Origin: an uncultured Methanoregulaceae archaeon
GTDB taxonomy: Archaea; Halobacteriota; Methanomicrobia; Methanomicrobiales; Methanospirillaceae
Assembly (NCBI GenBank): GCA_963841015.1
Contig: CAWJAX010000004.1
Coordinates: 64,001 to 128,000, forward strand
DNA: 64,000 nt
Reading direction: 5' to 3'
Below, in pieces: positions 5,731-20,079 of this stretch; position 1 is the first letter of the stretch, and each line of letters opens with the position of its first letter. The translations under genes and the position numbers were made by a program. The notes under the pieces were generated by a model. It did not search any database, was not told the DNA's origin, and saw only the letters and a list, made by a program, of their open reading frames with translations.

Positions 5731-6480
5731 ATGCTGACATTTATCGGACTCGGGCTCTATGACAAAACTGATGTTTCAGAAAAAGGGCTCGCCAGTATCC
5801 GCAACGCTGACCACATCTTCCTTGAAACCTACACTTCACGGCTCATGGGCACATCATATGAAGAGCTCGCGGCATATTATGGAAAGCCTGTGCGCCTCCT
5901 CGGCCGTGAAGATGTAGAACAGCACCCCGACGAACTCCTGAACACAGCTGCGAGCCAGAACGTAGTATTTCTCTGTGCAGGAGATCCGATGATCTCCACA
6001 ACCCACGCAGATCTGCGGATGCGTGCCGCTTCACGGGGGATTAAGACTACAATCATTCATGCAGCATCCATCTCAAGTGCAGTCTGCGGTCTTTCCGGGC
6101 TCCAGAACTACCGGTTCGGGAAGTCCTGTTCAGTGCCCTTCCCGCAGAAAAACTGGTCCCCTACATCATCCATCGATGTCATCGCGCAGAACCTGTCTCT
6201 GCAATTGCACACGCTTGTGTATCTTGACATCCAGGATACAAGGTTCATGACAGTCCCTGAGGCAATCCTCCTTCTTGAAAGAATGGCAGAAGAAAAAAAA
6301 ATTCACCTGCCTCTCTATGTCGGTATTGCACGGGCAGGCTCGGATAATCCCCTGGTAAGAGCCGGGCCTGCAGCTGCCCTGAAACCGGTGAATTTCGGTC
6401 CACCACTTCATATCCTGATTGTCCCTGCTGACCTCCATGAAATGGAACGCGCTTACCTGGAGATGTTTGCTGGTTTATGA
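5731..6480 (+). CDS. dph5: Diphthine synthase
   Basis: [41 protein letters not shown] and FGPPLH motifs. Confidence 0.95.
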
Positions 6481-7052
6481 AGATTACCGATTGCCAAATC
6501 CTGCTGACAACAACGCTCTCCAGGACAAAAAACTCAGCACCCGAGAGTACCCATTTCAACAAAACTGCAGCAATAGTCCTTGAAATGGCGGGTGCCTATG
6601 AAAGTGACGGGATCTCATTTTTTGCGTCCGGCGATCCCGTCAATGCGCTCGCAGGTTTTTATTACGGGTCTGGCTGGCTGCATTTTGGCTTGACATCCGG
6701 ACTGCTTGCGATCTCAACCTCTCCCGGGTGTCCTTTTTTGGAACAGCAGGAGGAACTCCAGCCACAGTTCAGGAAGAGACTTGAGGAGAAAGCGTATCGC
6801 TATGCACGTCTGCTGGATACTGCCCTGTCGTCAGTGAAATATGCCCCGGATCCTGCTACGATTAGTCATGGTTTCGCTGAGCGTATTCACTCTGTGGCTG
6901 TAGTGTATGCCAGACGTGGGAATTACTTCCTGAAATCCGGCTCTTTGGAAGATGCCCTTGCAAGTTTCAGTTATGGACATGGATGGCTTGATGCCGGGGT
7001 TACCGCAGGATTCTTCCACATACTGGCAGAGCGGGATCTCTTCACTGTCTAA
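6477..7052 (+). CDS. DUF357-domain protein (tandem duplicated domain)
   Basis: Two copies of the AYxxDG..F...GD..NALA...YGxGWLD-type motif; coupled to dph5 as in other archaea. Confidence 0.8.
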
Positions 7053-7112
7053 ATGTGATGACTGACACGCTCCTGGCATCAGTCCCGCTGTCCGGACACA
7101 GATTCAAGTCAT

Positions 7113-7127
7113 AAAAGCGTTTATACT
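7113..7127 (+). promoter_or_regulatory. Putative archaeal BRE-TATA promoter
   Basis: AAAAGCG-TTTATAC about 70 nt upstream of the ATG at 7194. Confidence 0.4.
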
Positions 7128-7193
7128 ATGTCTTAATAATCTGTAAAGATACCACGACCAAAAAATTGTGCTCTGTCTGACGAGGGAAAAACC

Positions 7194-8213
7194 ATGGAAA
7201 AGTCACAGGTAAAATGGCTCTACATTTCAATCGGGTTTTCCCTGCTTGTTTTAGTAATCATCCTGTTCCTCACCATCAATGAAAATACAATCCTGATTCT
7301 GAGGGAGATCAATCCAGTCTTCCTTCTTCTCGCATTCCTTGCCCATATACTTACGATGTGCTTCTGGGCATGGCGCATCCAGAAGATGTCCGGCTCGCTG
7401 GGATATCGTATCGGTTTTTTCTACAGCCTGAACCTTGTTTTTGCCAACCTGCTTATGGCAGCCATAACTCCCTCACAGGCGGGAGGAGAGCCGGTGAGAA
7501 TTCACGAACTCTACAGGGCTAACGTGCCACTTGGAGATGCAACTGCAATTGTAATCATGGAGAGGGTGCTGGATGGCATCGTTCTTGCCCTGCTTGCAGC
7601 TTTTGCGATGATTGTCCTTGCTGATCAGTGGAAAAGCCTGGGTGTAATCTCGCAGCTCATGGTTTTTATAACCTGGATCTTTGTAATAGGATGCCTGCTT
7701 CTCTTTTACCTTTCAACAAGGCGGCCGGACAAGGTAAAAAAGGTCGTCCACCGTATTGCTCGTTTCTTCACCCGTACCTGGGAGAGCCCCCGGGTGGAGG
7801 TATTCGTCGCGCGGACTGACAAGGAGATTGATAATTTCAATGAGGCAGTCATCAAGTTTGTGAAAAGTGCCAAAGGTGGACTTTTATGGGGATTTCTGTT
7901 TACCCTGCTCTACTGGATCTCAGAGATTTTAATTGCTTCTCTTATCCTCCTCGGGCTTGGGCAGCCACCGCTCATTCTTGAATCTTTTGTGATTCAGCTT
8001 GTTCTCACAATCCTGATGATGATCCCGCTCACTCCCGGCGCTTCCGGTATAGCTGAAGTGGGAGCCACATCGATGTATGCGCTGTTTATTCCCTCATCGA
8101 TAGTCGGGATATTCGTTGTCATCTGGCGGACGGTTCTCTTTTACTTTAATATTGCACTCGGAATTCTCTCAAGTTTCCTTATTGTGCGTCGTGAAGTAAA
8201 ATCCAAGAAATGA
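7194..8213 (+). CDS. Flippase-like membrane protein (UPF0104 / lysylphosphatidylglycerol-synthase TM family)
   Basis: ITPSQAGGEP, ERVLD, TPGASGIAE and WR motifs; multiple TM segments. Confidence 0.85.
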   Translation: MEKSQVKWLYISIGFSLLVLVIILFLTINENTILILREINPVFLLLAFLAHILTMCFWAWRIQKMSGSLGYRIGFFYSLNLVFANLLMAAITPSQAGGEPVRIHELYRANVPLGDATAIVIMERVLDGIVLALLAAFAMIVLADQWKSLGVISQLMVFITWIFVIGCLLLFYLSTRRPDKVKKVVHRIARFFTRTWESPRVEVFVARTDKEIDNFNEAVIKFVKSAKGGLLWGFLFTLLYWISEILIASLILLGLGQPPLILESFVIQLVLTILMMIPLTPGASGIAEVGATSMYALFIPSSIVGIFVVIWRTVLFYFNIALGILSSFLIVRREVKSKK

Positions 8214-8272
8214 CGCATTTTTTTCCTGACCTTAACTCTTATCACTCATGACAGCAACCATTGTGAACAGAT

Positions 8273-8725
8273 ATGACGCAAATAAGGTGCGAAGTAAAAG
8301 GTGTCTTTGTCACCATGAATGATGCTACAACAGTCCCCCTTGTAGTACTGTCTGACGGGGGTGAACAAAGTCTTCCGATATTTATCGGGCTCTGGGAAGC
8401 AGTTTCCATCAATAGTGCGAAAAACAAAGAGGTTCTGTCAAGACCATTCACTCACGATCTTTTTTTGGATCTGATTGTAAAATTTTCCATATCTGTCCAT
8501 TATCTGCAGATTGACAGCATTGAGGATGGGGTTTATTATGCCCAGCTTGTGCTCTCGGCAGATCATCACAAGGAGTATCTTGACTGTCGTCCCAGCGATG
8601 GCATCGCCCTTGCGCTCCGGGCAGATGTTCCAATATTTGTTGATGAAAACGTACTTGCGTCAGCTGGCCAGAAAACGGCGGATCTCCCCCCCATGATTGA
8701 CCTGGCCACATTTTTAAGAAAATAA
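8273..8725 (+). CDS. Bifunctional nuclease family protein (DUF151)
   Basis: LPIFIGLWEA, RPFTHDL and DCRPSDGIALALR motifs. Confidence 0.92.
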   Translation: MTQIRCEVKGVFVTMNDATTVPLVVLSDGGEQSLPIFIGLWEAVSINSAKNKEVLSRPFTHDLFLDLIVKFSISVHYLQIDSIEDGVYYAQLVLSADHHKEYLDCRPSDGIALALRADVPIFVDENVLASAGQKTADLPPMIDLATFLRK

Positions 8726-8800
8726 TTACGAGCCATTTTCGATCCTGGGGAACCACCAATCATTCGATCCGGTTCACCCTTTTACTAGGTAATTTTTACG

Positions 8801-8910
8801 AGGGGCTTCCAGCTCAGGACCTGTCCGAGTCACGGCGGGCAGAGGTTTTTTTTGAATGGTTTGTTACTGATCCGCCGCGGGGGCAACCCTTCGGGGCGGG
8901 GGCAATTATC
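8801..8910 (+). repeat. Intergenic repeat family 3, copy 1 (twin-hairpin element)
   Basis: CGAGTCACGGCGGGCAGAG-T-tract-GTTACTGATCCGCCGCGGGGGCAACCCTTCGGGGCGG; similar to 57471-57588 (-) and 63251-63367 (+). Boundaries are approximate. Confidence 0.7.
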
Positions 8911-8960
8911 GTACAGGGAAGAGTGAAAAAAAATATCGTATCATAGCTGAATAGTTCAAT

Positions 8961-9162
8961 TTTCATGGGAAACGCTCAAGCTAAACGCTCAAGGGGGTTT
9001 CACCCCCGCCGCTGTGGCTCCCCCGATGCGATAAATCCCGAACAGGTGCTACCTCATCATCGCTCAGCGCAGGGGCGGCATGGGAGGACAGGCTCATGTC
9101 CCCTCCTTCATTCATACCAGCATCTTAAATTTCATATCCATGGAAAAGGAATTACCATGAAA
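8961..9162 (+). mobile_element. MITE-like repeat family 1, copy A (variant ends TTTCATGG...CCATGAAA)
   Basis: About 200-bp core (GGGGGTTTCACCCCCGCCGCTGTGGCTCCCCCGATGCGATAA...CATCTTAAATTTCATATCCATGGAAAAGGAATT) shared with the copies at 20.5, 26.0, 26.9 and 62.9 kb. Confidence 0.8.
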
Positions 9163-15088: not shown

Positions 15089-15505
15089 TTAGACTGTTAC
15101 TGATATCCGTTTCTGATCCTGAGATACTTTTCGCGTCCTGTACAGCTGCAGGGTCTGTTTCGGTATTTTCATGATGAAAGCATGCCGATCTTTTCCGTAC
15201 ATAACGTTTCGGAGTGCTCTGAGGGAAACGGTGAAACATCCGTCATTGAAAAGATCAATATTCAGGGCTTTTCCTGACACGGAGATCTGGGCAAGACCGC
15301 AGGTGGATCCCAGATAATAATTCCAGTTATGGGTCAGCTCTTCGACCTGGACAAATACCCGGCCGGTAATAGCACCGGCAAGACCGTCTCTGCGAATTGC
15401 ATATCGTAGACCATGGATATGTATCTCGATTACTTCGTGCATGACCCCGTCATTGTCAAATGCCCTGATTCCGGTCCTTTGGAGATATCCTGCTTTTTCC
15501 ATCAT
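15089..15505 (-). CDS. Hypothetical protein
   Basis: 138-aa ORF co-oriented with its neighbours, with a GAAGGTGG-like RBS upstream; no recognised motif. Confidence 0.6.
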   Translation of the reverse strand: MMEKAGYLQRTGIRAFDNDGVMHEVIEIHIHGLRYAIRRDGLAGAITGRVFVQVEELTHNWNYYLGSTCGLAQISVSGKALNIDLFNDGCFTVSLRALRNVMYGKDRHAFIMKIPKQTLQLYRTRKVSQDQKRISVTV

Positions 15506-15644: not shown

Positions 15645-16766
15645 TTATTTTTCCCGGTCCATGCATGCATTCAGGACATTCTCGACAAAGGAAAGGGTGC
15701 CGGTAATACCTGCAACAGAATGCGGGGCCAGCTTCACCATCCCCCTGAGTGGGGGTGTAAGCCCGACAAAAGCAGCCTTGCTTTCCACAGACCGCTCAAA
15801 CGAGGACCCTATGACGAGATCAGGATTAAACTGCCGGATAAGTGACGTTACACGGGAAAAACCCTGCACGTGCTCACCCGGATAGGAAGAGATGCCTGGT
15901 TCGTTGCGGGAACCAACATACAGGATATCTGCATCAAGGTAATGCTTCAGGGTCCTCGCTGCAAATGTTGCATACGAAAAACCACCAAAAATGATTGCCT
16001 GAGGGGGATTGAACCTGCGGAGATATTTATCACATGCCCTGACAATTCTTTCATCTTCCCGCTCAATTTCTTCGTTAACCGGACTGATATCTGCTTCCGG
16101 ATATACCAGGGCAATTTTCTTAAATGTAGCACGTATTTCTTCAAATCCGAGCGTGCCTCCAAGCCACGTTCCGACACCACTGGAAAAATCCATGTTTGTT
16201 CCCATTGTATACCTGGCTGCATGCCCCACACGCTCAAGCCGGTCCGAGCAAAAAACAGTGCCCACGGATACTGATGCACAGCCCAGCAACCGCACAATTT
16301 CCCGCACATTACCGCAGGAAAATGGATCGAAAAGACAGGCGCCATCAATATTTATCCCTTCTACACCTGGATCAACCATCGGTTCAAGAACGGAGAGTGC
16401 CTTTTTATATCCTGTCTCTACATCTCCCGAAAAACCCGGGCTGTCAACAAGGATCACATCGTACTCTTTGAGCATCGACCGTACATCCTCACCAAGTATT
16501 GCGGGAACGCAGGTCATAACCACAGCAATCTTTTTGCTCTTCTCAGAAAGCCCGTCAAGCACTTCATGAAGTCGCTGCTCTGAACCGAAAATTACCTCGT
16601 TCTCCATGATAAAGGTGCCATGGAGGGGAACATGGAGGAGCGTTGCAGGATAAAAGTAGCATCCGCTCGACCCATGGATCACCACAGTTATACCCTCAAA
16701 ACCCGCCAGACATGCTGCAGCTCCGGTCATAGCACATGGCCAGAGGGGATTTTCGCAGTCAGGCAT
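15645..16766 (-). CDS. Nitrogenase component-1-like oxidoreductase, subunit 2 (NifK/NflK-like, ~373 aa)
   Basis: Likely start [15 protein letters not shown] overlaps the upstream stop. HGSSGC, ENEVIFG and TCVPAILGED motifs (three Cys). Confidence 0.85.
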   Translation of the reverse strand: MPDCENPLWPCAMTGAAACLAGFEGITVVIHGSSGCYFYPATLLHVPLHGTFIMENEVIFGSEQRLHEVLDGLSEKSKKIAVVMTCVPAILGEDVRSMLKEYDVILVDSPGFSGDVETGYKKALSVLEPMVDPGVEGINIDGACLFDPFSCGNVREIVRLLGCASVSVGTVFCSDRLERVGHAARYTMGTNMDFSSGVGTWLGGTLGFEEIRATFKKIALVYPEADISPVNEEIEREDERIVRACDKYLRRFNPPQAIIFGGFSYATFAARTLKHYLDADILYVGSRNEPGISSYPGEHVQGFSRVTSLIRQFNPDLVIGSSFERSVESKAAFVGLTPPLRGMVKLAPHSVAGITGTLSFVENVLNACMDREK

Positions 16767-17778
16767 GGATTGCACGCCTCCACCTGTGGAGCATCCGCAT
16801 GACACCGGTTGTCCCCACGGGGGGTGATATCTCCAGGGGAACCCTGCATCCATCACGATCAATCGTAATATCGATCTCGTCTGCAATTTCGCAGGCCAGC
16901 CTGAAGGTATCAGAATCCTTAAGGGCAGGATCAAATGCTATGGAGGTACCGGTTATATCGTTAAATTCCGTAAGGATCTCTTCCTGCAGGACTTTTTCCT
17001 CGTGTACGGCTCGCAGGTATTTCACACCAAAACTATCTGCAACCGATTCGAGAAAGCTGATTGTCCCTGAAAGTCCAACCGGAAAGGATGGAATAAAAGG
17101 TGTAGCGAATCGTTGGTGAAGCCGTTCTCCGACAGGACGCAGATCATCGTCACGGAGAATGTTGAGCCGCGCAGCACCGAGACGGGTTATGTCAGTCATG
17201 GAACAGTCCCGCACGAACCGCAGATTTACGGATATGCCGAGTGCGGAAAGTAACCGGGAAACTTCTGCATAGTTCTCTTCAACTTCATATTCGAGATTTT
17301 TTTCACCGATAATATTCACGCACCAGCCCTTTGTGCAGGGTTCAGCGGTATCAGCGAGGGCATTGAGGGCATTATTCACGCCATTCTGGAAAGTACCCCC
17401 AAGGAATCCCCCGCTTGGAACCGGGAGAACAGGCACTCCACGGTCCCTGCGGCAGAGAGCTGCAACGTCATCGCCAATAGTGTCAGCGATGCAGGTTGAA
17501 AGAACGAAAACAGCGCCAATATGTCGCTTTGCAACCGCATCGAGAGTCCTTTCGAGCGCCGCTTCACCACCAAAAATAATATCACTTTCGGATAACCCTG
17601 TTGAGATCAAATCCGGCATGGTAATATGATCGTTATTAAACCCCGTTGCATGTAAAAGAGAAAAGTTATGATGGGTGCACCCTTTCGGCCCGTGTATTAT
17701 GGTAACGCTATCCCGTACATGGGTCGTCACCGAGAGTGCTCCGGTAAGCGTGCACCCCCCGTACCTAGATATATTCAA
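16759..17778 (-). CDS. Nitrogenase component-1-like oxidoreductase, subunit 1 (NifD/NflD-like, ~340 aa)
   Basis: [38 protein letters not shown] and VNIIGE motifs. Start uncertain (TTG 17778, ATG 17799 or 17808). Confidence 0.85.
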
Positions 17779-18577
17779 TGGCAAGGGATTCGAGGTCATC
17801 AATTTCAAGGGGGGTCGGGATAGAGAACCGGGTGTTTTTCATAATACGTGCTGCAAGGGACCTGTACTGTGCTGCCTGATCAGAGTCCGGATCATACTCA
17901 AGCACCGTCTTCCGGTTGAGTTCTGCAAGCTGCACAACACGATCCCGGGGGATATACTGTATAAGTGAACTGTTCACCCGCTGTGCAAATTCACTCACGA
18001 GCTCTTCTTCGCGAGGCTGGTTCTTTGCATTACAGATAACCCCGGCAAGCCGGCACGTGCTTTTTGTCCTTGAGGAAAGGCGTTTTATCGCCTTACAGAT
18101 ATTATTCGCAGCGTACAGCGACATTAACTCCCCGGAAGTAACGAGGTAGATATCCTGAGCATAACCCTCACGCATGGGCATGGCAAATCCACCACAGACG
18201 ACATCCCCGAGGACATCATACACGATGACATCCCCTTTGAGTGCCCCGAATTTCTCAAGAAGCTGGAACGTGGCGATAATCCCCCGTCCGGCACACCCGA
18301 CACCTGGTTCCGGTCCTCCCGCCTCAACACACCGTACCCCGTTAAAACCAGTATACACGATATCTGAAAGAGAGAGTGCGGCTTCACCCCGGACCCTGAC
18401 CAGATCCATGACAGTGGGAATGAATGTCCCGTGCATCAGCATACGTGTGCTGTCCCGTTTGGGGTCGCATCCGATCTGCATGATATCCAGGCCCTGAAGG
18501 GAAAGAGCAGCGGACAGATTCGCCGAGGTAGTTGATTTCCCGATGCCTCCCTTTCCATACAGGGCTATCTGCTTCAT
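17765..18577 (-). CDS. NifH-like Fe protein (nitrogenase reductase family, non-canonical)
   Basis: [34 protein letters not shown] and [11 protein letters not shown] motifs. Confidence 0.92.
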
Positions 18578-18729: not shown

Positions 18730-19725
18730 TTATGATAGATAGACTGGAGGAGGTATTTGTATAAAGCGGGCAGCATTCTTCAGGCTGAAAATATGTTTAT
18801 ATGCCAATTCAATTTGTCGTTTACTCAGTTTCGTGCTTTTTTGGACTATATCTGCAGGCAGATGGTTTTCATCAGCATATAAAAGCTGGTCGAGGATAGT
18901 ATAGGGTAACCTCATGGAAATTTCTTCGTCCGATGTGTAGTGACTCCAGGTGTCCGGGCTTGGTGCCCTTGCTATGATCCTTTTGTCAACATGTAATAAT
19001 TCTGCAAGTTTATAGACCTGTGATTTATAGCAATTTGCAATAGGTTCCAGATCAACTCCCCCGTCTCCATACTTTACGAAAAATCCTGTGAGCGATTCAG
19101 TTTTATTCGTAGTTCCACATACGGCATAATTCCTTTTCTCAGCATGCATGTACTCAACAATCATCCGTGTTCTCTGTTTCACATTCTGGAGACTAAGAAC
19201 GGTAAAGAACTGTTGTGCGGTCAATCGTTTTGTGCCGATGGTTTTTCCGTTTTTCAACAGAATAAGCGAGGGTATATTGAGCATTTCCGCAGATGCCATC
19301 ATTGAGGGGCGCAATAATGATGTGGTATGATATGCCGGATCATACCCGGGGAACAACTCGCGGATCAGTGATTCTTTTTTAGAATAGATATTGAATGCTT
19401 CAAGCATGGGGGTGATCGGAACTTCCTCATACCTGATTTTTAACGCTTTACAATGATCTATCCCCAGTTCCCTGCTGGAAGGAGCCGATTCCTTCTCTGG
19501 AAGGATTAGGCCGTATACCCTCTCAGGGCCTAGAGCATCAACGGAAAGAGCCGCAATTACTGCAGAATCAATTCCTCCTGATACACCAATCACAATGCCA
19601 TCTTTCTTAAACTGATCACGTACTGTTTGCTTAATAAAAGTGGATAATTTTTCTTTGAGATCTTCACTATTTTTAAGCATCTCTTTTTTTATATCAAACC
19701 CGTCTTTAAAGGTTCTTTTAACCAT
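18730..19725 (-). CDS. nadE: NAD+ synthetase-like N-type ATP pyrophosphatase (NadE paralogue with insertion)
   Basis: GVSGGIDS, NVKQRTRM, GTTNKTE, GFFVKYGDGGVD, YKSQV and APSPD motifs. Confidence 0.8.
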   Translation of the reverse strand: MVKRTFKDGFDIKKEMLKNSEDLKEKLSTFIKQTVRDQFKKDGIVIGVSGGIDSAVIAALSVDALGPERVYGLILPEKESAPSSRELGIDHCKALKIRYEEVPITPMLEAFNIYSKKESLIRELFPGYDPAYHTTSLLRPSMMASAEMLNIPSLILLKNGKTIGTKRLTAQQFFTVLSLQNVKQRTRMIVEYMHAEKRNYAVCGTTNKTESLTGFFVKYGDGGVDLEPIANCYKSQVYKLAELLHVDKRIIARAPSPDTWSHYTSDEEISMRLPYTILDQLLYADENHLPADIVQKSTKLSKRQIELAYKHIFSLKNAARFIQIPPPVYLS

Positions 19726-19830: not shown

Positions 19831-20079
19831 ATGAATGAAATACAAGGAGATATACTGGAATTTTTGAAAACGCAGGGATTTCTGAATGAAAAAATTTCAT
19901 TACAGGAAAACGACTCCTTATCAGAAACGGGTGTAATCGATTCAATCACCTTACTTCAGCTTATTGATTTCCTTGAGAGTAAATATCACATTCAAATTCC
20001 TGTAGAAATGATAACTCCTGAAAATTTTGATACCCTGGCCGGAATCAGTCAATCGGTCATGAAATTGAAAAAAAGCTGA
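19831..20079 (+). CDS. Acyl carrier protein (phosphopantetheine-binding)
   Basis: 82 aa, acidic; GVIDSITLLQLIDFLE contains the carrier-Ser motif; C-terminal ITPENFDTL. Confidence 0.88.
   Translation: MNEIQGDILEFLKTQGFLNEKISLQENDSLSETGVIDSITLLQLIDFLESKYHIQIPVEMITPENFDTLAGISQSVMKLKKS

Follow-up and report, generated by a model that had tools for sequence, protein, structure and literature searches.

A near-universal Methanomicrobiales operon probably couples the F430 Fe protein to a second, nitrogenase-like component 1

A 64,000-nucleotide (nt) stretch of an uncultured Methanoregulaceae archaeon (assembly GCA_963841015.1, contig CAWJAX010000004.1, positions 64,001 to 128,000; hereafter the window) carries on its minus strand three overlapping open reading frames (ORFs), which encode a NifH-type Fe protein (H) and two short subunits resembling component 1 of nitrogenase (D and K). 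The locus raises the question of what such an operon does at a place devoid of nitrogen-fixation genes, and which component 1 its Fe protein serves. The original prediction, made from the sequence alone, took the operon for an uncharacterised ATP-dependent reductase engaged in neither N2 fixation nor F430 synthesis. We propose, with a probability of about 0.6, that H-D-K is a core operon of the order Methanomicrobiales, in which D and K make up a second component 1 with a P-cluster-type site that shares the F430 Fe protein, H.

The ORF list of the window gives the three genes in the order H-D-K (coordinates in Table 1), and Pfam places H in Fer4_NifH (357 bits) and both D and K in Oxidored_nitro, which bears out the predicted layout of three overlapping genes. 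The overlap is 35 nt between H and D and 8 nt between D and K (ATGCCTGA). K has the 373 amino acids (aa) first ascribed to it; D, put at about 340 aa, is slightly longer, at 346 aa, and this start is backed by its homologues, most of which measure 346 aa at 100% coverage. Homologues of K are 373 or 361 aa long, which fits the start of K. The arrangement is far beyond chance, with orthologues in the same H-D-K order in 63 of 69 related loci and the remaining six ending at contig edges; the contig titles of the close relatives name Methanoregula. A tblastn search of the window (E ≤ 1e-3) found no match to NifI1/I2, NifB or CfbA/B/E and no further NifDKEN or CfbD-like gene, in agreement with the absence of nifI, nifEN, nifB and cfb noted at the outset.

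All the motifs quoted in the original prediction, three N-terminal Cys per subunit and LNILRD in D, are present in the translations. D has GC at residues 15-16, HGPKGC at 36-41, STC at 101-103 and LNILRD at 212-217, and K has PC at 10-11, HGSSGC at 31-36 and TC at 85-86. The two subunits were aligned with the NifD, NifK, NifE and NifN that one Methanoregula nif cluster (L089) encodes, as well as with CfbD of their own genome; Cys16, Cys41 and Cys103 of D fall on the three P-cluster positions of NifD, and Cys11, Cys36 and Cys86 of K on those of NifK. The iron-molybdenum (FeMo) cofactor of NifD is held by Cys275 and His442 (PMC13474568). In D, LNILRD aligns with LNLVQC, so that Asp and not Cys stands at the Cys275 position, and the last third of NifD, including the His442 region, is absent. 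The Pfam match of D (190 bits) spans only positions 1-255 of the 399 in the Oxidored_nitro profile, and that of K (114 bits) positions 1-398. Across order-wide sequences from six families, 42 residues of D are invariant (21 of 21 sequences), among them Cys16, Cys41, Cys103 and Cys116, as are 30 residues of K (20 of 20), among them Cys4, Cys11, Cys36 and Cys86.

Neither subunit passes a curated NCBIfam cut-off among the Nif, Vnf, Anf, Bch and CfbD models, and all scores lie far below. The best match of D is nifE (116.6 bits against a cut-off of 505.1), and its nifD score is 78.7 (cut-off 653.55). K scores best on nifE (50.5), CfbD (48.7) and nifK (45.4, cut-off 427.3), and reaches 33.7 on nifN (cut-off 326.8). 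On the CfbD model TIGR03282, D and K obtain 41.3 and 48.7 bits against a cut-off of 268.4, and the Bch models give 71.2 for BchB (cut-off 490) and 49.4 for BchN (cut-off 420). Against solved structures, the single sequence of D was closest to the fused NifEN 9i0g (94 bits), followed by NifD (75), BchB (66) and the Mar chains 9d9u/9fmg (48), and that of K to 9i0g (49) and NifK (43). With family profiles the scores of D were 260 bits for NifEN (9i0g), 171-178 for NifD, 170 for NifE, 153 for MarD (9d9u_A) and 136 for BchB; those of K were 87 for 9i0g, 80 for AnfK, 79 for NifK, 58 for MarK and 27 for NifN. By every test run, then, D and K were not recognised as nitrogenase, NifEN, CfbD, Mar or Bch, and the part of the original prediction that called them uncharacterised, with 3+3 Cys and no cofactor Cys, stands. 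Judged from their sequences, D and K are an uncharacterised nitrogenase-like pair with a putative P-cluster-type site.

AlphaFold2 modeling yielded confident folds for both subunits, with a predicted local distance difference test (pLDDT) value of 91.7 and a predicted template modeling (pTM) score of 0.88 for D, and of 92.3 and 0.90 for K. The top Foldseek match of D in the PDB was NifE (9i0f_A, 2.6e-19); NifE, cofactor-less NifD, BchB and MarD were all found at approximately 1e-18 to 1e-19 with template modeling (TM) scores of 0.65-0.73, a result that identifies the component-1 fold and does not separate these four as nearest family. K matched the beta-type chains NifK, VnfK, AnfK, NifN and BchB with TM scores of about 0.8. 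A model of the D+K complex scored 0.72, and the best of three controls 0.00; 58 of 80 solved complexes, but just two of 110 mismatched pairs, attained the mark by which the pair passed. The model runs agreed in at least 91% of contacts, with a partner pLDDT of at least 88. The predicted interface comprises residues 11-16, 38-44 and 102-104 of D and 3-11, 33-36 and 86-87 of K, and holds all the conserved Cys. This pass may reflect the likeness of the pair to solved NifDK and NifEN rather than provide independent proof of binding.

The genome at large (2.28 Mb in five contigs, 94% complete) bears on the partner of H. It has only three Oxidored_nitro genes: besides D and K there is a true CfbD, on contig C3, which scores 491 bits on TIGR03282 and whose N-terminus, MKYMHPRPSSIVAALY, is the PRPS..AALY-type motif correctly predicted to be missing from D and K. 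This gene is part of a cluster cfbA-cfbE-cfbD-cfbB, each member over its curated cut-off, and no cfbC was found in that cluster. A PF00142 search returned H as the only NifH-family gene of the genome, the other matches reaching just 44 and 24 bits; the sequence of the 44-bit match reads as MinD-like. NifB is present over its cut-off on contig C2. CfbD requires an Fe protein partner, CfbC (PMC13474568). Given that H is the sole NifH-family gene, that the cfb cluster lacks cfbC and that CfbD needs an Fe protein, H would have to serve CfbD, and we infer that it acts as CfbC, the F430 Fe protein. A search for a separate cfbCD, as the original prediction had suggested, thus located cfbD on contig C3 and did not find a separate cfbC: H is the only cfbC candidate, and D and K are not the only candidates for cfbD. 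The exclusion of F430 synthesis accordingly fails once the operon is taken in its entirety.

Two complete Methanoregula chromosomes (G002 and G003) repeat this arrangement, with one NifH-family gene, beside D/K, and an unlinked CfbD. A third complete chromosome, G001, contains a nifH-nifI1-nifI2-nifD-nifK-nifE-nifN cluster (L089, G001:C1:1085800-1094200) in addition to H-D-K and CfbD; its extra NifH-family copy lies inside that true nif cluster, and the D/K pair therein coexists with a true nitrogenase.

H itself has the Walker A motif GKGGIGKS, Cys95 and Cys128, all invariant in 21 of 21 order-wide sequences, and 112 of its residues are invariant across the six families. It scores 416.3 bits on the CfbC model NF033200 (F430_CfbC; cut-off 402), where canonical CfbC proteins obtain 414-430 and true NifH proteins 383 and 410, and 389.2 on the nifH model TIGR01287 (cut-off 394.35), where canonical CfbC proteins obtain 325-337 and true NifH proteins 454-458. 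Elsewhere in the phylum, outside the order, the top CfbC matches lie in cfbD-cfbC-cfbB clusters (12 loci) or adjoin cfbB (three loci); in the 12 Methanomicrobiales loci the top match precedes D. A tree was built from 34 H proteins of the order, 15 canonical CfbC, four NifH and, taken from H::D fusion proteins, 25 N-terminal domains, and each of these four groups was split off by one branch, with Shimodaira-Hasegawa-like approximate likelihood ratio test (SH-aLRT) support of 94, 100, 100 and 97. The history of H may have followed either of two scenarios, in which the order moved its own cfbC beside D/K, or the Fe protein of an H-D-K operon replaced cfbC. A grouping of H with NifH, meaning that canonical cfbC had been displaced, was considered and dropped, as the unrooted three-group tree defines no grouping and the four-group tree is undecided. 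As an observation on annotation in general, automatic CfbC names in the phylum may be wrong, given that one NifH (locus L142) passes both the nifH and the F430_CfbC models.

The distribution of the operon was assessed in 121 evenly drawn Methanomicrobiales genomes (NifH-family threshold E ≤ 1e-50). A NifH-family gene was detected in 119 of them, and exactly one such gene, by manual count, in 77. D-like genes were likewise found in 119 genomes, in 118 at E ≤ 8e-73 and in the fragmented assembly G082 at only 3e-26, and K-like genes in 118, in single copy each; among the high-quality genomes, D and K were each present in 104 of 105. H abuts D in 20 of 20 loci drawn from all six families, and K comes next in 18. 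In one genus K lies 2-15 kb from D and is still kept; at one such locus (L096, 5072-7109, genome G049) the genes between D and K are, by eye, universal-stress-like, membrane and tautomerase-like, with K on the opposite strand, and the inserted genes of this genus offer no functional hint. In a sample of 251 genomes across the phylum, D-like genes (E ≤ 1e-35) occur in 37, all from the six families of Methanomicrobiales, and in none of the 213 genomes outside the order. H-D-K is therefore a single-copy, near-universal core feature of Methanomicrobiales and not an oddity of one genome.

One natural loss is informative. In G098, a 99% complete genome of the same family, H is present and D and K are absent; the locus (L147, G098:C13:21000-34000, approximately 6200-9100) reads TrkH, H and a homologue of the 138-aa protein that follows K in the window, and the gap is clean and lies inside a 45-kb contig. 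The sole Oxidored_nitro match of this genome is of the CfbD type (56.7 bits, profile positions 6-104), and H is, as in G002 and G003, the only NifH-family partner that CfbD has there. Retention of H beside CfbD in a genome without D/K fits the CfbC role of H, and the joint loss of D and K fits a joint function; it also means that D/K is not strictly essential.

The converse pattern was met in the family that includes Methanocorpusculum, where five of 41 genomes (G004, G005, G028, G035 and G040) yielded no CfbD and keep H-D-K. The same five also lack cfbB over cut-off, and a CfbE protein query, which had no positive control, gave no match; three other metagenome-assembled genomes (MAGs) titled Methanocorpusculum do carry CfbD. 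The idea that D/K replaces CfbD in Methanocorpusculum was not adopted, with cfbB missing too, the cfb cluster often lying on short contigs and assembly gaps being the likeliest cause. The absence of CfbD and cfbB in the five genomes may reflect MAG gaps or a loss of F430 synthesis.

A search with D among 1.84 billion cluster representatives returned 1561 proteins at E ≤ 1e-3, of which 54 reached E ≤ 1e-30. In a FastTree phylogeny of 162 rows, built without named sequences from Mar, Nfa, Isr or Group VI, 21 sequences of the order and 17 representatives form the D clade (support 98), and K forms a separate clade (support 100). The named members of ten clusters in the D clade are all Methanomicrobiales, labeled nitrogenase component 1, oxidoreductase or hypothetical. 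Beyond this clade come unnamed representatives, followed by a group with many NifH::D fusions and by a seven-row group, with low support at the deep nodes; the named members of the outgroup belong to Limnochordia/Bacillota, Nitrospinae, Tectomicrobia, Chloroflexota and Desulfococcaceae and are labeled nitrogenase component 1 or hypothetical. The nearest relatives of D and K appear to be uncharacterised bacterial proteins. NifH::NifD-like fusions of 730-770 aa (G094:C40, G096:C1:2246047-2247996, G078:C1:569959-570807 and G122:C28; P0282, P0283 and others) make up an additional nitrogenase-like system in some Methanomicrobiales, and such fusions are frequent among the bacterial proteins closest to D, in Desulfococcaceae and others.

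Several nitrogenase-like (NFL) groups have been described, and D/K can be compared with each of them. A 2026 review distinguishes Groups IV-A (Nfa), IV-B (CfbCD), IV-C (Mar), IV-F (Isr), V (the dark-operative protochlorophyllide and chlorophyllide oxidoreductases, DPOR/COR) and VI, and lists IV-D and IV-E as being without known function (PMC13474568); elsewhere, IV-A, C, D, E and F are treated as bacterial nflBHDK sets (PMC13753814). Further nitrogenase-like proteins of unknown function have been mentioned in methanogens (bioRxiv 10.1101/2023.10.20.563283). With NifDK, VnfDK and AnfDK (Groups I-III), D/K has in common the gene order H-D-K and each of the six Cys positions of the P-cluster, whereas D lacks the Cys275 equivalent, the His442 region and a full domain III, nifI and nifEN are not nearby, and the D and K genes are approximately 130-200 aa shorter. 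DPOR/COR probably shares with D/K a mechanism in which no second metallocluster stands between the interface cluster and the organic substrate that receives its electrons; DPOR, however, uses three Cys and one Asp where D/K has 3+3 Cys, and the present host is not a phototroph. The Group VI proteins of Elusimicrobia keep at most four of the six P-cluster Cys according to the same review (PMC13474568), in contrast to D/K, in which all six are invariant. D/K fully matches the description of a class of NifE/N-like pairs reported in 2012, including from Archaea, whose alpha and beta genes are adjacent, with 3+3 Cys and without either FeMo-cofactor ligand, alongside which nifH-nifE fusions were noted (Dos Santos 2012, PMC3464626); in its account of this class, that paper gives no function and no tie to cfbC or to a single archaeal order. 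The literature on nitrogenase-like genes of Methanoregula and on cfbC of Methanomicrobiales, supplements aside, yielded no account of the H-D-K operon.

The mechanism that we propose starts with H as a homodimeric NifH-type Fe protein, which would bind ATP and a bridging [4Fe-4S] cluster and pass electrons to CfbD for F430 synthesis. D and K would form an alpha2beta2 protein like NifDK or NifEN, with a P-cluster-type site at the D-K interface made of six invariant Cys, three per subunit, and with one extra invariant Cys in each subunit. D offers an M- or L-cluster no ligand and has a reduced third domain, which would leave an opened pocket. Since both features point away from a second cluster site, electrons would travel from H to the interface cluster and straight on to an organic substrate in that pocket, as in DPOR and CfbD. 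The genes, their motifs, their distribution, the sole Fe protein and the one natural loss of D and K are observed, whereas the CfbC role of H, its service to D/K, the type of cluster and the class of substrate belong to the proposal. The original prediction had suggested a tetrapyrrole, a sulfur compound or a metal chelate as substrate. We favor a housekeeping cofactor over a salvage substrate, because the pair is single-copy, near-universal, positioned for co-transcription with the F430 Fe protein and free of transport or sulfur linkage; a tetrapyrrole or F430-related compound is the leading guess. More tentatively, and at odds that we place below even, D/K could represent a new functional type, a P-cluster-only heterotetramer for an order-specific step by which a methanogenic cofactor, F430-related or some other tetrapyrrole, is made, modified or repaired, with H routinely serving two catalytic partners, CfbD and D/K, and with D/K as a living intermediate between homomeric CfbD and the cluster-bearing NifEN and NifDK.

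Other explanations account for parts of the same evidence. D/K could itself belong to the F430 pathway as a further enzyme, of heteromeric build, either a CfbD isozyme or a reductase of an F430 precursor, variant or oxidised form that works with the same Fe protein. Like CfbCD, D/K would rely on ATP-driven one-electron delivery without an M-cluster, and its operon holds the only Fe protein candidate for the genome's CfbD; the pair is kept order-wide, the ring closure of the lactam in vivo is described as having open questions (PMC13474568), and five of the 41 genomes of the G004 family, Methanocorpusculum MAGs included, have D/K with no CfbD found. Those five genomes, however, are also without cfbB over cut-off, and incomplete MAGs explain the absence equally well. 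CfbD is moreover a single homomeric subunit with 2+2 Cys (PMC13474568) as against two subunits with 3+3 Cys; D and K reach 41 and 49 bits on a CfbD model with a cut-off of 268; canonical CfbD is kept in 35 of the 41 genomes and in six of ten other genomes checked; and G098 has CfbD and H without D/K. An additional F430 enzyme of this kind thus seems unlikely. A somewhat fainter prospect is that D/K acts as a NifEN-like scaffold or carrier, which with NifB and H would mature or deliver a complex Fe-S cluster, e.g., the L-cluster-like [8Fe-9S-C] of the methyl-coenzyme M reductase (MCR) activation complex. The best sequence, profile and fold matches of D are indeed to NifE or NifEN (nifE 116.6 bits; 9i0g 94 by sequence and 260 by profile; 9i0f_A by Foldseek), the heteromeric alpha/beta design and the NifH-type partner are shared, and NifB is present over its cut-off. 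Published work reports that methanogens cannot do without NifB and places the L-cluster-like clusters of the MCR activation complex on McrC and Mmp7 (PMC12176620, bioRxiv 10.1101/2023.10.20.563283). Yet D has Asp at the Cys275 position, K keeps all three interface Cys where NifN-type beta subunits are described as keeping only one (Dos Santos 2012, PMC3464626), and the K profile obtains just 27 bits against NifN; D is approximately 110 aa shorter than Methanoregula NifE, H-D-K has no nif context, D/K is absent from G098, and the MCR activation clusters are needed by every methanogen, whereas D/K is confined to one order.

A reductase of small molecules in the manner of Mar or Isr, performing C-S cleavage or another salvage reaction and merely borrowing the Fe protein, is very unlikely in our view. 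The characterised Group IV systems that do not act on tetrapyrroles carry out such chemistry (PMC13474568, PMC13753814), D/K resembles MarHDK and the bacterial Groups IV-A, D, E and F as an NFL heterotetramer with P-cluster-type Cys and non-nitrogenase chemistry, and the D profile scores 153 bits against MarD (9d9u_A). Those systems, however, are described from bacteria and, in the review, have a Cys275-equivalent for an L-like cluster, an in-cluster NifB homologue and usually sulfur genes (PMC13474568), none of which belongs to H-D-K: D has no Cys at the position of MarD Cys270 or NifD Cys275, whose role is given in the same source (PMC13474568), NifB is on another contig, and no nflB, transporter or sulfur gene stands beside the operon. 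The Mar chains are no closer to D than NifD or NifE, and a core, single-copy distribution is unlike that of accessory salvage systems. Simple decay, with D and K as functionless remnants of an old nitrogenase-like operon held in place by their position downstream of an essential gene, is barely credible. Domain III and every cofactor ligand are gone from D, and one lineage dropped D and K and kept H; against this, both genes have intact frames without internal stops in 118-119 of 121 genomes, 42 residues of D and 30 of K are invariant across six families, K is still kept where it has been displaced by 2-15 kb, and both fold models are confident.

The reading of D/K as a second component 1 on the F430 Fe protein has points of its own against it. 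The CfbC cut-off does not discriminate, given that a NifH with 458 bits on the nifH model (L142:1480-2298:-) passes it at 410; H is 46-50% identical to the cluster-embedded cfbC of other families as against 54% to Methanoregula NifH; the comparison of H covered the CfbC of this phylum, with those of class I methanogens (Methanococcales and Methanobacteriales) outside it. The branch linking H with canonical CfbC has an SH-aLRT of only 79, and a tree joining H with NifH is better by 3.5 log-likelihood units (p of 0.64 in the approximately unbiased test). The six Cys could bind a P-cluster, two [4Fe-4S] clusters or one, among which the sequence cannot tell, and no gene context points to any substrate. 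The loss in G098 makes D/K dispensable in at least one lineage, a poor fit with an essential cofactor step, and the link of H to CfbD or to D/K in Methanomicrobiales is a predicted one. With these points counted, a shared F430 Fe protein and a second component 1 remains the reading that we favor, at the probability given above.

RNA-library contigs from sediment (four runs, two studies) match portions of each of H, D and K with 90-99% identity. The D/K junction is bridged by contigs of 534 nt and 191 nt; the H/D junction, for which 31 letters on each side were required, was not bridged in these contigs. They are weak evidence of expression, with DNA carry-over or an origin from relatives possible, and their depth cannot rank the genes.

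Around the operon lie TrkH, a NadE-like gene, a PAS protein and LeuB, and among the neighbouring genes of the window that were checked no nflB, transporter or sulfur-metabolism gene adjoins it. The NAD+ synthase-family gene and the small carrier-like gene (Table 1) are probably unrelated to the operon, being common only to the two closest relatives. The 138-aa protein downstream of K matched nothing in Pfam or NCBIfam, and its search of the Atlas gave no usable result. Its homologue in G098, which directly follows H there, is 35% identical, and a 35% identical copy stands after K in G156 (L115).

Table 1. Positions of the H-D-K genes and of adjoining features in the 64,000-nt window
Feature	Coordinates	Strand	Basis
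H, NifH-type ATP-dependent Fe protein, 270 aa, putative CfbC	17765-18577	-	Fer4_NifH match
D-like, alpha-type (NifE/NifD-like) component-1 subunit, 346 aa, reduced domain III	16759-17799	-	Oxidored_nitro match
K-like, beta-type (NifK/NifN-like) component-1 subunit, 373 aa	15645-16766	-	Oxidored_nitro match
TAATATAAAT, possible TATA box of archaeal type, upstream of H by 21-30 nt from its start codon	18598-18607	-	Reading of the sequence only
138-aa conserved protein downstream of K, possibly operon-associated	15089-15505	-	After K in Methanoregula loci
NAD+ synthase-family gene adjoining H	18730-19725	-	NF002048, 388 bits
Small carrier-protein-like gene, divergent from the NAD+ synthase-family gene	19831-20079	+	PP-binding, 24.6 bits

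F430 is the cofactor behind nearly all biological methane, of which Methanomicrobiales are a major source in wetlands, in sediments and in the guts of animals. The H genes of the order, which lie near the nifH cut-off (389 vs 394), add to the problem of pseudo-nifH sequences in environmental nifH surveys. D/K, with subunits of 346 and 373 aa, would offer a compact natural test of a P-cluster-type site without an M- or L-cluster, and so bears on the evolution of nitrogenase. If it is true that the F430 Fe protein drives a second reductase in almost the whole order, current maps of methanogen cofactor pathways would miss a piece.

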